Positions 2,206-64,000 of a stretch of 64,000 bases of DNA are shown here, piece by piece. The stretch spans positions 2,480,991-2,544,990 of the forward strand of contig CBDBMD010000003.1 of assembly GCA_965207415.1 (NCBI GenBank). The letters are read 5' to 3'. A program made the translations under genes and the position numbers. This DNA comes from Dehalococcoidia bacterium (GTDB lineage Bacteria; Chloroflexota; Dehalococcoidia; UBA2979). The stretch's first letter is position 1. The number at the start of each line of letters is the position of its first letter. The notes below the pieces were generated by a model, which saw only the letters and a list, made by a program, of their open reading frames with translations, did no database searches and was not told the DNA's origin.

Positions 2206-3138
2206 GTGACCGCCTCCGCGCCCGAGCCGCAGGCCGAGGATCGCGACCTCGCGGCGATCGAGGAGGCCGCGCTCGACCTCGGCCGGCTCGCGGGCGAGCG
2301 GATCACGGAAGCGCTCGCACGCGAGATCGTCGTCGAGTACAAGGACGAGACCACCACCGCGGGCGGCGCCCCGACCAACCCCGTCTCCGAGACCGATCGC
2401 GCCATCGAGGCGCTGCTGCGCGAGCAGATCGCCGAGCGCTTCCCCGAGCACGGCGTGATCGGCGAGGAGGTGGGCGACGACGACGAGGCCGGCCGCGAGT
2501 TCGTCTGGGTCCTCGATCCGGTCGACGGCACCGCGAACTTCGTCAACGGCTTCCCGCTGTTCGCCAGCTCGATCGGCGTGCTCCGGAGCGGGCGGCCCGT
2601 GGTGGGCGCGATCTGGTGCTCGACCTCGCACGCGCTGCGGCCCGGCGTCTACCACGCGCACGAGGGCGGCCCGCTCTGCTTCGAGGGCGAGCCGGCGCCG
2701 CTCGGCCGGCCCAGCGTCGGCGTCACGCGCCGCCTCGGCGCGGCGCCGGGCGGCGCGCCGGGCCGCCGGCGCAGCCTGGACACGCGAGTCACGGGATCGG
2801 CGGCGCTGGAGTGCGCCTTCGTCGCCGCCGGCATCTTCCAGTCGGCGATCTTCGGATCGCCGAGCATCTGGGACGTGGCCGCCGGCGTCTCCCTCGTGCG
2901 CTCCTCGGGCCGCGTCGCGCTCACGATGCAGGGGAAGGAGTGGAGCGACCTCGAACGCTTCGAGGCGCCCGCGTCCGTCCGCGGCGACCGCCCGCCGACG
3001 ATTCGCGACTGGCGGCAGCCGCTGATCCTCGGCACGGAGGAGGAAGCCGAGGCGCTGGTCCGCCGCTCGCGCAGCCTCGGAGTGCGCTGGATGCGGGCGC
3101 GCTGGCGGCTCAGGCAGCGGCTGCGGCGCTGGCTCTAG
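2206..3138 (+). CDS. inositol monophosphatase family protein (IMPase/SuhB-like)
   Basis: 310 aa. Metal-binding motif WVLDPVDGTANFVNGFPLFASSIGV and the downstream WDVAAG motif are characteristic of the IMPase/FBPase fold. Confidence 0.8.
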   Translation: MTASAPEPQAEDRDLAAIEEAALDLGRLAGERITEALAREIVVEYKDETTTAGGAPTNPVSETDRAIEALLREQIAERFPEHGVIGEEVGDDDEAGREFVWVLDPVDGTANFVNGFPLFASSIGVLRSGRPVVGAIWCSTSHALRPGVYHAHEGGPLCFEGEPAPLGRPSVGVTRRLGAAPGGAPGRRRSLDTRVTGSAALECAFVAAGIFQSAIFGSPSIWDVAAGVSLVRSSGRVALTMQGKEWSDLERFEAPASVRGDRPPTIRDWRQPLILGTEEEAEALVRRSRSLGVRWMRARWRLRQRLRRWL

Positions 3139-3151
3139 CCGTGACGGGCCA

Positions 3152-3913
3152 CTAGATCGGCGGCCAGGGGACGCAGCGCCAGGGATACATCTCCGGCAGC
3201 ACCGGGTTCGCCAGCAGCTCCGTGCTGCGCTCGATCAGCGCCTCGACCTCGCGCTCGTGCAGGCAGGCGCGCAGCGCGTCCGTCGAGGGGTCCGCGGCGC
3301 GCAGGCAGTCGCGCGCGCGGCGGATGTCGTGCTGCCACTGCTCCGGCAACCGCTCGCCCGCGAAGTCCCAGACCACCGTGCGCAGCTTCTCGTGGCTGTG
3401 GAAGCAGAGCGCGTTGTCGATGCACCAGAGCCGTCCGGCGGCGTCGAGCAGGACGTGCCCGCCCTTGCGGTCGGCGTTGTTCGCGAGCAGGTCGAAGGCG
3501 GCGATGCGGATCAGCGTCTCGCGCAACTCCTCGCGATCGCGCAGCTCGAAGAAGTGCTCGGCCGGGTTGTGCTCGATGAAGAGCTGGACCGAGCCCGCGC
3601 CCTCGGGCCCCTCGCGCTCGAGGGTGGGCGGGACGATCTCCCAGCCGAGCAGCCGCGCGTACTCGTACGCCGCGACTTCGCGGAGGTGGAGCGTGCCGTA
3701 GGGGAAGTCCTCCAGCGGTCGCTCGCCTCGTTGCGGCTTGTAGACGGCGAGCCCCTCGCCGTGCGCGGGGTGCACGAGGTCCACGAGGAAGACGTAGTTG
3801 GAGGAGTCGTAGAGCAGCCGCGAGCGCACGACCTCGGCGTCGCGCAGCGTCTCCTCGACGTGAGGATCGCCGGGTCGCAAGGCGTTGCGGAGGTCACGGA
3901 TGCTCTCGGGCAT
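3152..3913 (-). CDS. SCO1664-family protein (PI3/4-kinase-like conserved hypothetical)
   Basis: 253 aa. Kinase-like catalytic loop NNADRKGGHVLLD and overall length match my memory of the actinobacterial SCO1664 family (TIGR03843). Family assignment is from memory. Confidence 0.5.
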   Translation of the reverse strand: MPESIRDLRNALRPGDPHVEETLRDAEVVRSRLLYDSSNYVFLVDLVHPAHGEGLAVYKPQRGERPLEDFPYGTLHLREVAAYEYARLLGWEIVPPTLEREGPEGAGSVQLFIEHNPAEHFFELRDREELRETLIRIAAFDLLANNADRKGGHVLLDAAGRLWCIDNALCFHSHEKLRTVVWDFAGERLPEQWQHDIRRARDCLRAADPSTDALRACLHEREVEALIERSTELLANPVLPEMYPWRCVPWPPI

Positions 3914-61420: not shown

Positions 61421-63061
61421 TCACGACGACGCAGCCTGCGAGGCCGCCTCCCGCGCCGCGGCGGTGCGGTACTCCAGCGCCGCCCCCACGAAGTCGCGGA
61501 ACAGCGGCTGCGGGCGCAGCGGCCGCGAGGTGAACTCCGGATGGAACTGCGTCCCCAGCATCCAGGGATGGTCGCGCAGCTCCATGATCTCGACCAGCTC
61601 GCCGTTCGGCGAGCAGCCCGAGGCGATCAGGCCGTGCTGCTCCAGCACCGGCAGCAGCTTGTTGTTGACCTCGTAGCGGTGGCGGTGCCGTTCGCGCGCC
61701 TGCTCCCGTCCGTAGGCCGCGGCGGCGTGCGTACCCTCGACCAGCCGGCAGTCGAAGCCGCCGAGGCGCATCGTCCCGCCGTAGTCCTCGATGCCGCGCT
61801 GCTCGGAGAGCAGTGAGATCACCGGGAACGGGGTCCGCGGATCGGCTTCCGTGGTGTTGGCCTCGGGCATCCCCGCGACGTTGCGGGCGAACTCGCAGAC
61901 CATCATCTGCAGCCCGAGGCAGACACCGAAGTAGGGGATGCGCCGTTCGCGCGCATACGTCGCGGCGGAGATCTTGCCCTCCAGCCCGCGGTCGCCGAAG
62001 CCCGGACAGACGAGGATGCCGTCGACCTCGCCGATCGCCTCCTCCGGCGACCGCGTGTCGAGCTCCTCCGAATGCACCCAGTGGAAGTTGATCCGCACGC
62101 GATGGAAGACGGCGGCGTGGATCAGTGCCTCACGGATCGAGAGATAGGCATCGTGCAACTCCACGTACTTGCCGACCACGGCGATCCGCACCTCGGAGTC
62201 GGGATTGCGCAGCCGCTCGACGAAGTCGCGCCAGTCGTCCAGGTCGGACACGGGGGTCTCGATGCCTATGCGCTGCAGCACCAGGTCGGCGAGCCCGCAC
62301 GCCTCGAGGACCAACGGGATTTCGTAGATCGAGTCGGCCGTCTGGAGGGGAATGACCGCCTCGCGCTCCACGTTGCAGAAGAGGCCGATCTTCTCGCGCA
62401 GCGCCTCCGGCGCGGGCTGGTCGGCGCGCGCGATGATCACGTCCGGCTGGATGCCGAAGGAGCGCAGCTCCCGCACCGAGTGTTGCGTCGGCTTGGTCTT
62501 CAGCTCGCGCGTGGAACCGATGTAGGGCAGCAACGTCACGTGGATCGAGGCCGTCGCGTCCACGCCCAGCGTGTGCCGCATCTGCCCGATCGCCTCGATG
62601 AACGGCTGGCTCTCGATGTCGCCGATGGTGCCGCCGACCTCGACGATCACGATCTCGGCGTCCAGCGCGCTGCCGGCCTCGCGGATGCGCTTGCGGATCT
62701 CGTTGGTGACGTGCGGGATCTGCTGGATCGTGCCGCCGAGGAAGTCGCCCTTCCGCTCCTTGCGGATCACCTCCTCGTAGATCTGGCCCGAGGAGGTGGA
62801 GTTGGCCTGCGAGAAATTCTCGTCGAGGAAGCGCTCGTAGTGTCCGAGGTCCAGGTCGGTCTCGGCGCCGTCATCGGTGACGAAGACCTCGCCGTGCTGG
62901 TAGGGGGACATCGTGCCGGGGTCGACATTGATGTAGGGGTCGAGTTTGAGGACGGAGACACGGAGTCCGCGGGCGCGCAGGATGCGGCCGAGCGAGGCGG
63001 TGACGATCCCCTTCCCGACGGAGCTCACGACGCCGCCCGTGACGAAGATGTACTTCGGCAT
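61421..63061 (-). CDS. pyrG: CTP synthase PyrG
   Basis: MPKYIFVTGGVVSSVGKG N-terminus, a glutamine amidotransferase class I domain with a GFGDRG-like motif (CPGFGDRGLEGK), and a conserved LGLQMMVCEF segment. Start at MPKYIF preferred. Confidence 0.95.
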   Translation of the reverse strand: MPKYIFVTGGVVSSVGKGIVTASLGRILRARGLRVSVLKLDPYINVDPGTMSPYQHGEVFVTDDGAETDLDLGHYERFLDENFSQANSTSSGQIYEEVIRKERKGDFLGGTIQQIPHVTNEIRKRIREAGSALDAEIVIVEVGGTIGDIESQPFIEAIGQMRHTLGVDATASIHVTLLPYIGSTRELKTKPTQHSVRELRSFGIQPDVIIARADQPAPEALREKIGLFCNVEREAVIPLQTADSIYEIPLVLEACGLADLVLQRIGIETPVSDLDDWRDFVERLRNPDSEVRIAVVGKYVELHDAYLSIREALIHAAVFHRVRINFHWVHSEELDTRSPEEAIGEVDGILVCPGFGDRGLEGKISAATYARERRIPYFGVCLGLQMMVCEFARNVAGMPEANTTEADPRTPFPVISLLSEQRGIEDYGGTMRLGGFDCRLVEGTHAAAAYGREQARERHRHRYEVNNKLLPVLEQHGLIASGCSPNGELVEIMELRDHPWMLGTQFHPEFTSRPLRPQPLFRDFVGAALEYRTAAAREAASQAASS

Positions 63062-63157
63062 CAGCCCTCGGATGGTTGGGGAGGACACGGACCATATTCC
63101 GCGCGCGTCGCGGAGGTGTCAACGATCAGGGGGCGCGCGGCGCTCATGAGCAGGCCG

Positions 63158-63547
63158 CTACGGATCGCCTGTGTAGTCCTCTAGCTCGTCCAACGCCGGG
63201 GCGCGTCCGATACCCCAGAGGGTCACATCCCGACTTCGCTCGAAATCAGCATGGAACTCGAACCAGACCATGCACTCCGGCACATCCGGGAATCCGGGCT
63301 CCGTGAGGAGCAGCCCGTCACGGATCGGTTCGTCGCCCGCAACGACCCTGATTCGGGGATGCTCCCGGCTCTCCCGGTACGCCTCGATCTCGCGATCGAG
63401 GACATGCTTGATGCCGCGCTCGAGCAGGTACAGCCACGCGACGGCTCCCGGCACCAGCGAGCGGAGTTGCCCCGAGAACTCGGATGTTACCTCGAAGTGG
63501 TGTGTCCAGCGGCCGGGCGGCTGCTCACGAGGAAGATCTCGTGGCAC
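63158..63547 (-). CDS. hypothetical 129-aa protein overlapping the 3' end of a Panacea-domain gene (candidate toxin partner)
   Basis: Its ORF start overlaps the upstream gene by 23 nt on the same strand. No recognisable domain. It could also be a chance ORF in GC-rich DNA. Confidence 0.3.
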   Translation of the reverse strand: MPRDLPREQPPGRWTHHFEVTSEFSGQLRSLVPGAVAWLYLLERGIKHVLDREIEAYRESREHPRIRVVAGDEPIRDGLLLTEPGFPDVPECMVWFEFHADFERSRDVTLWGIGRAPALDELEDYTGDP

Positions 63548-64000
63548 GTCGTTCCGTTCGCGCCCGCTCCCACGCAGCGACCTCGGTCGGCGTGGGCTGG
63601 CGATCCGAGATGTAGACGGTCTCGTACGGGATCTCCTCGCGATCTCGCGCGAGCCTCCAGCCCGCCTCGAGGTGCGATAGCGCGCTCACCTGCGATGCGT
63701 TGAGGTCCCCAAGCTCGGTCAGGACCGCATCAACAATGGCGATCTCCGCAGAATCGAGGAGCTCCTTTGCGTCAGACTTCCGCAGTGGCCGAACCACCTT
63801 CTGGGGACGATTGAAGTAACGCCGCTCCACTCGCTCGATTTCTCCCTCTGCTTCCATCAAGCGGAGGGCGGGGAGCAGTTCCCTGGGAGCGGGCCCCCTG
63901 TCCAGACGCTGGTACGTGGCGCCCGTGATCGACTCGCCGAGCATGCCAAACGCCTTGAAGTCGCTGAAGTACAGAATCTTGTTGAGCTTCGTGGCTCCGA
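63525..64000 (-). CDS. Panacea-domain (DUF4065, SocA-like antitoxin-type) protein, 5' end beyond window
   Basis: Translating upstream of the track ORF gives ...ATKLNKILYFSDFKAFGMLGESITGATYQRLDRGP. This matches my memory of the DUF4065 KLxKLLYFAD....G.P.TG..Y....GPV signature. The gene continues past position 64000. Confidence 0.5.
   Translation of the reverse strand, partial: GATKLNKILYFSDFKAFGMLGESITGATYQRLDRGPAPRELLPALRLMEAEGEIERVERRYFNRPQKVVRPLRKSDAKELLDSAEIAIVDAVLTELGDLNASQVSALSHLEAGWRLARDREEIPYETVYISDRQPTPTEVAAWERARTERRATRSSS

Follow-up and report, generated by a model that had tools for sequence, protein, structure and literature searches.

A Panacea-domain gene overlapping an acidic partner of predicted RelE/ParE fold: a candidate toxin–antitoxin pair in Dehalococcoidia

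The Panacea domain is a compact, helical fold with a beta-hairpin (alpha1–alpha7, beta1–beta2) that can neutralise toxins directly when it stands alone, or leaves this to C-terminal add-ons such as Phd-C, and it has been proposed to act as a sensor (Ernits et al., PMC10440598). The toxin–antitoxin (TA) systems built on it, PanAT, number 1,268 predicted pairs in 88 toxin clusters, with the antitoxin gene first (PanA-first) as the commonest order and with ParE and RelE/HigB/YoeB-like proteins included among the partners (PMC8832971); for validated pairs, PanA:PanT complexes have been demonstrated (Kurata et al., PMC8832971). Here we describe a candidate pair of this kind at one end of a 64,000-nucleotide (nt) stretch of DNA (the window) from a Dehalococcoidia bacterium (assembly GCA_965207415.1, contig CBDBMD010000003.1, positions 2,480,991 to 2,544,990), consisting of a Panacea gene, panA, and a small overlapping gene, X, the candidate panT. 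We lean towards reading the two genes as a chromosomal, type II-like PanAT module of this high-GC member of the Chloroflexota, with a toxin of RelE/ParE fold, and consider that reading rather probable.

The closest described systems are the PanAT pairs with RelE/ParE/HigB/YoeB-like PanT proteins (Kurata et al. 2022, Dataset S1, clusters T14, T28 and others, with ParE among the CDD hits; PMC8832971). The present locus resembles them in having PanA first and free of any extra N-terminal domain, in the small RelE/ParE-type partner that follows directly, by overlap or within a few nt, and in the recurrence of the pair in several species. HHpred recognised T14 and T28; by contrast, neither X nor its wider family matches any Pfam, CDD-type or PDB sequence model, and X is acidic, the T clusters being compared by description only. 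A second point of comparison is T1, the largest PanT cluster, made up of hypothetical proteins downstream of PanAs without an N-terminal domain and including members from Nitrolancea hollandica (Chloroflexi) and Acidobacterium capsulatum; the member from Clostridium cadaveris carries the label ‘mRNase’ and proved toxic, and its PanA failed to neutralise it in E. coli (PMC8832971). The X family is like T1 in PanA architecture, gene order, gaps and overlaps, and taxonomic range (soil, peat and Chloroflexi loci). X may belong to T1, again compared by description only, in which case the family is already catalogued, though uncharacterised. PanAT pairs with a RelE/ParE-fold partner have in any case been catalogued in silico, and the locus opens no new class of system; what it adds is one more, previously unnamed, sequence family of toxin partners for Panacea, an antitoxin already known to be hyperpromiscuous.

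Comparison with other TA families is shorter. The predicted toxin fold, the size and the antitoxin-first overlapping bicistron are those of canonical ParDE and RelBE systems (6xrw, ParDE of P. aeruginosa; 1wmi, aRelBE; 9w3a, PfiAT), whereas the antitoxin is a Panacea protein rather than a ParD/RelB ribbon-helix-helix or Phd/YefM protein, and X has an isoelectric point (pI) near 4.9 together with family-specific tails and a family-specific loop. DarTG differs further, since DarT is an ADP-ribosyltransferase rather than a RelE/ParE-fold protein and the DarG macrodomain is absent here; profile searches gave no sequence-level relationship between PanA and DarG (PDB 7yk3).

The pair occupies the right-hand end of the window and is encoded on the minus strand, with the following features.

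63525..64000, minus strand: 3' part of panA, 157 codons plus stop, encoding the Panacea domain (SocA_Panacea, PF13274).
63158..63547, minus strand: gene X, the candidate panT, 129 amino acids (aa), acidic, with a GTG start at 63547–63545, a TAG stop at 63160–63158 and a predicted RelE/ParE-superfamily fold.
63525..63547, minus strand: panA/X overlap of 23 nt, with the panA stop region over the X start, a likely translational-coupling junction.
63434..63436, minus strand: codon 38 of X, TGG (Trp), where close relatives have Arg (CGG/CGA).

The window edge cuts panA. The stop-free frame running from 63998 to 63525 on the minus strand encodes 157 aa beginning GATKLNKILYFSDFKAFGMLGESITGATYQRLDRGP and ends in a TGA at 63527–63525, while the start codon is placed ~95–135 nt past the end of the window. 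In locus L007, from a Dehalococcoidia metagenome-assembled genome (MAG) that is 96–99% identical, the full panA encodes 189 aa from an ATG or 202 aa from a GTG, and judged against it ~32 N-terminal PanA residues fall past position 64000. An initial annotation, made from the DNA alone, had claimed a Panacea/DUF4065 gene at this place, and the frame gives exactly the peptide it quoted; the co-directional 129-aa open reading frame (ORF) that it described as overlapping panA by 23 nt is likewise as stated.

The assignment of PanA to the Panacea family is clear. PF13274 (SocA_Panacea, formerly DUF4065) matches it with an E-value of 1.5e-16 and 61.8 bits against a gathering score of 25.7, over profile positions 1–112 of 113, so that nearly the whole domain lies inside the window. 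The same Pfam entry is found in precomputed annotation on the orthologues and on 392 homologues, and PanA carries no separate N-terminal domain. In an AlphaFold2 model (mean predicted local distance difference test, pLDDT, 82) residues 11–130 form a confident core, and confidence is low over the last 60 residues; these include a basic helix (residues 169–186), and a conserved IPYE-x-YISDR-PT stretch lies in the same poorly ordered region. Sequence searches of the PDB with PanA profiles gave no credible match.

An exact look-up of the X protein of the window returned no record. Eight homologues at 64–85% identity were found in a collection of 5.8 billion proteins, and an exhaustive hidden Markov model (HMM) search of 1.84 billion cluster representatives gave only 18 matches; all family members come from metagenomes or MAGs, and the sole name given in any source is ‘hypothetical protein’. 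Translated searches (tblastn) of five Dehalococcoidia/Chloroflexi MAGs cover residues 1–129 of X at 81–96% identity. At every related locus the N-terminal extension, (V/M)PRDLPREQPPGRWTHHFEV, is conserved and stays in frame, with an ATG at its start in L005. Pairwise Nei–Gojobori estimates over nine orthologous loci put the ratio of nonsynonymous to synonymous substitution rates (dN/dS) at 0.18 for X, at 0.09 for X codons 9–24, which lie outside the overlap, and at 0.09 for PanA. Both genes are thus under purifying selection, X is a genuine gene and its GTG start is correct. The shorter starts chosen by gene callers in relatives, which would give proteins of 99–110 aa, were rejected: the window has GTA at codon 20, and the 19 codons before it are conserved in frame at the low dN/dS just given.

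The initial annotation had also made its proposal depend on translation signals for X, and these are weak: the Shine–Dalgarno signal consists, by eye, only of a GGA at 63555–63553 on the minus strand, 5 nt before the GTG. At the panA–X junctions of relatives we find overlaps of 11, 20, 23, 29 or 38 nt and, at one locus, a 4-nt gap; in nearly all relatives, then, X begins over the stop region of panA, which fits translational coupling.

Among 18 loci from genomes and metagenomes, fetched via X or close PanA relatives, 17 have a PanA of the same subfamily directly upstream of X; the exception (L016) is taken up below. Across L001–L011 the order is a peptidase M16 gene on the opposite strand, PanA, X, pyrG and a DUF2269 gene, within a housekeeping region that also holds purA, rho and hrcA–grpE, and this synteny by itself could be explained by vertical inheritance alone. 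PanA homologues at 60–68% identity that lie in other places also keep an overlapping X homologue. The pair is found upstream of rpoB (L012/L013), between purL and rplI–dnaB (L014, L017), upstream of ilvC (L015) and upstream of a gene for a thiamine pyrophosphate enzyme (L019/L020), as well as at L018, and altogether occupies at least five different neighbourhoods. Because the flanking genes vary while the pair persists, the conserved unit is the pair and not the neighbourhood.

A metagenome scan with the PanA alignment extended this range by 70 further loci, at 35–66% PanA identity, of which 55 are informative, having 300 nt or more beyond the PanA stop. An X-family gene lies beside PanA in ~49 of the 55: 41 are co-directional by a joint HMM, 3 are co-directional ones missed by the ORF picker, 1 is convergent (L043), and 4 belong to a small cluster that hhalign ties to the X family (91%). 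The link to the wider family was also drawn independently of iterative searching, by blastp clustering of the downstream ORFs, which produced one 38-member cluster whose profile aligns end to end with that of X (hhalign probability 88.5–93.5%, E-value 2e-7 to 3e-6). A family gathered by jackhmmer was discarded, since the database was tiny, the search had drawn in most downstream ORFs, and the family collapsed once 1,240 decoy ORFs were added. The co-conservation that the initial annotation had named as a check is therefore borne out at both scales, and the linkage supports its TA-like pairing. By the two-gene standard used for PanAT, that is overlap or adjacency together with conservation (Kurata et al. 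2022), the pair qualifies through the 23-nt overlap in the window, through the Dehalococcoidia/Chloroflexi MAGs L001–L011 and the other contexts L012–L020, and through the metagenome loci.

The same annotation had seen no recognisable fold in X and suggested a new toxin class; structure prediction does not support this. The AlphaFold2 model of X, built on a 21-sequence alignment (pLDDT 85; predicted template modelling score, pTM, 0.76), runs through a strand (17–20), two helices (22–31 and 35–58) and four strands (66–69, 75–81, 92–99 and 107–115). The model thus presents the N-terminal strand, two-helix hairpin and three- to four-stranded antiparallel sheet that define the RelE/ParE fold. All of its structural neighbours are bona fide toxins, and the best-fitting single structure is PfiT, which we take to be ParE-like (root-mean-square deviation 1.8 A, 20% identity). 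As modelled, then, X is a protein of the RelE/ParE superfamily in fold, from a sequence family previously unnamed. Several additions set the family apart: the N terminus is a tail bearing a PEQP-type motif, the C terminus an acidic ED[DY][ST] tail, and between them come one more short strand and a long TEPGFPDVPE loop. Once structures are predicted, seemingly novel partners again reduce to a few recurrent toxin folds.

The membership of X in the RelE/ParE group holds at the level of fold and for no curated sequence family. X alone has no match in Pfam or NCBIfam (to an E-value of 1), PADLOC or PHROG; the 21 X-family members match no curated family to an E-value of 10, nor does the wider cluster; and PDB sequence searches with profiles of X and of the wider cluster gave no credible match. 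An hhalign comparison of the X profile with E. coli RelE and RK2 ParE stayed below 1% probability; the short segments that aligned were placed as the fold would predict, which we do not count as evidence. Foldseek of the X model against the PDB returned NTF2-like noise alone, at E-values of at least 0.23.

If the pair is a PanAT-type module, panA, encoding a Panacea antitoxin of ~185–190 aa, would be made first and X would be translationally coupled to it through the overlap. PanA would bind X directly and keep it inactive, with the contact made perhaps by the globular Panacea core or perhaps by the C-terminal region, where the IPYE-x-YISDR-PT stretch and the basic helix lie. Loss or triggering of PanA would then free X, and growth arrest would follow. 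As to what X would attack, we tentatively put forward, as possible rather than likely, a ParE-like, non-nucleolytic action that poisons a protein target such as DNA gyrase. This seems somewhat likelier than RelE-like mRNA cleavage because the family is acidic, its conserved polar columns lie off the sheet and C terminus, and it is without the basic surface typical of RelE.

Base composition is in keeping with a module of this kind. No other 843-bp stretch of the window has a GC content as low as that of the panA–X segment (63158–64000), 64.2% against a median of 71.3%, and GC at third codon positions (GC3) is 0.76 for the pair against 0.94 in the adjacent pyrG. In every relative (L001, L004–L008, L012, L014, L017) the pair lies 6–10 GC points under its surroundings, with synteny stable. 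Such low GC would fit a foreign, acquired or selfish origin of the pair.

Several observations weigh against a PanAT module with a RelE/ParE-fold toxin. First, the X family is uniformly acidic, with a pI of 4.3–5.3 in 21 of 21 members; E. coli RelE and RK2 ParE are basic, with a pI >9 for the sequences compared. Second, R38, the best-conserved polar position of the family (Arg in 50 of 57 members), is replaced in the window by Trp through a single CGG-to-TGG change, Arg being present in L006, L007, L008, L009 and L011; Trp also stands at this position in L055 and L071, and X of the window may be an attenuated allele. Third, of the 78 pairwise comparisons among 13 loci (L001, L004–L009, L011, L012, L014, L015, L017 and L018), 99% show higher identity for PanA than for X, with a mean of 69% against 50%; this reverses the usual type II TA pattern, in which the toxin changes less than the antitoxin. 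Fourth, the M16–pyrG synteny of the pair holds in relatives down to ~65% identity, unlike that of mobile, patchily distributed TA systems. Fifth, X is convergent to PanA, and so not co-transcribed with it, at three metagenome loci: L043 (48–784), where the two genes stand tail to tail and their stop codons overlap by 4 nt, L039 (1404–1685) and L059 (894–1106), the latter two lying outside the 55 because they have <300 nt after the PanA stop. Type II TA operons are not usually arranged in this way. Sixth, a distant X-like gene, P0145, stands at 206/212–535 of the 1.1-kb metagenome contig L016 (1–1123) without an upstream Panacea gene.

The likeliest alternative keeps the PanAT module and makes X a ribosome-dependent mRNA endonuclease of the RelE/HigB kind, which would act by blocking translation. 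We regard it as unlikely. RelE/HigB/YoeB-like partners do occur among catalogued PanAT pairs, as noted above, and the fold of the model belongs to the same superfamily. Yet X has no sequence similarity to RelE-type families, its best-fitting structure is the presumably ParE-like PfiT, and the family is acidic. The polar columns conserved over 57 family sequences, mapped approximately, fall in beta1 and the helical hairpin (R16, Q27, R38, R52, E55) and in an inter-strand loop (T82). They contain no set of Lys, His and Tyr residues on the sheet or at the C terminus; the hallmarks of RelE-type mRNases, a basic surface and catalytic Lys/Arg/His/Tyr residues on the sheet or in the C-terminal region, are not found in X.

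Next in order, and with a smaller chance still, comes a domesticated, vertically inherited pair that is not, or never was, a TA system, with X a non-toxic partner or regulator of PanA and PanA the dominant component (a sensor, adaptor or effector). It is this reading that the departures from a textbook TA system listed above keep in play. The consistently better conservation of PanA, the syntenic housekeeping location across the clade and the placement of other pairs beside rpoB, rplI/dnaB and ilvC all suit such a history, as do the acidic family with its lack of an obvious catalytic set and the convergent arrangement of some pairs. There is precedent as well, in that 8 of 25 tested PanTs were non-toxic and three PanAs were themselves toxic (PMC8832971), and a sensor role has been hypothesised for Panacea (PMC10440598). 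Against this, all structural neighbours of X are bona fide toxins and the overlapping, antitoxin-first layout is that of classic TA; the low GC argues for a selfish or foreign origin, and chromosomal TA pairs can be stably inherited. A particular form of this history, which we judge improbable, is a module of Chloroflexota and soil bacteria in which X is no classical growth-arresting toxin, with a slow-evolving PanA core and a fast-evolving acidic X as its regulator or decoy, perhaps a nucleic-acid mimic by way of its acidic surface and ED[DY][ST] tail. If true, the Panacea domain and the RelE/ParE fold would each gain a new role.

A SocAB-like, type VI arrangement, in which PanA would be a proteolytic adaptor handing an unstable toxin X to ClpXP, with no sequestration, is very improbable: although Panacea is the SocA domain, as the name SocA_Panacea of PF13274 records, PanA reaches 12.4 bits with the NCBIfam SocA_antitoxin equivalog NF047745, whose cut-off is 190, and this speaks against a SocAB system, X is of predicted RelE/ParE fold with nothing to tie it to SocB, and the PanAT pairs of Kurata et al. 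formed type II-style complexes.

We therefore continue to favour a PanAT-type module with a RelE/ParE-fold toxin. With its acidic fold, its better-conserved antitoxin and its residence among core genes in sponge-associated Dehalococcoidia, the pair offers a test case for the role of Panacea as neutraliser, sensor or adaptor.

The solitary X-like gene P0145 has a fragment of a DNA methyltransferase gene (phrog_498) on one side and, on the other, the gene for a phage major head protein (phrog_212, E-value 1.7e-38). Since it stands without PanA, the X family is not strictly tied to PanA, and it may travel on phages. A phage origin of X was considered and set aside: viral contigs, scanned twice with alignments or proteins of X, gave no match, and only L016 has a phage neighbour. 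At another metagenome locus, L034, the X homologue is split over two frames, with the N-terminal half at 3012–3266 (matching the 73-aa fragment P0143) and the C-terminal half at 3199–3450; either the gene is a frameshifted pseudogene or the assembly is in error here.

Downstream of X, 96 nt separate the pair from pyrG, which is followed by the DUF2269 gene, and two further features fall in this part of the window.

61421..63061, minus strand: pyrG (CTP synthase), an ORF and housekeeping neighbour outside the module, with Pfam CTP_synth_N/GATase in the syntenic loci L001–L006.
63094..63122, minus strand: TTGACA-N17-GAATAT, a promoter-like motif between X and pyrG that was noticed by eye and falls short of the threshold of a consensus scan.

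The promoter-like motif suggests that pyrG need not depend on read-through from panA–X; a scan for terminator-like sites between X and pyrG found none. At L001, pyrG as called overlaps X by 11 nt. In the rpoB context (L012/L013, 1–5889) the same peptidase M16 gene that borders the pair in the clade of the window lies 4.6 kb upstream, with genes for an aldehyde:ferredoxin oxidoreductase, a ThiS-like protein and a methyltransferase in between. Its presence in this context too may reflect an ancestral position beside the M16 peptidase, followed by later insertions or rearrangements.
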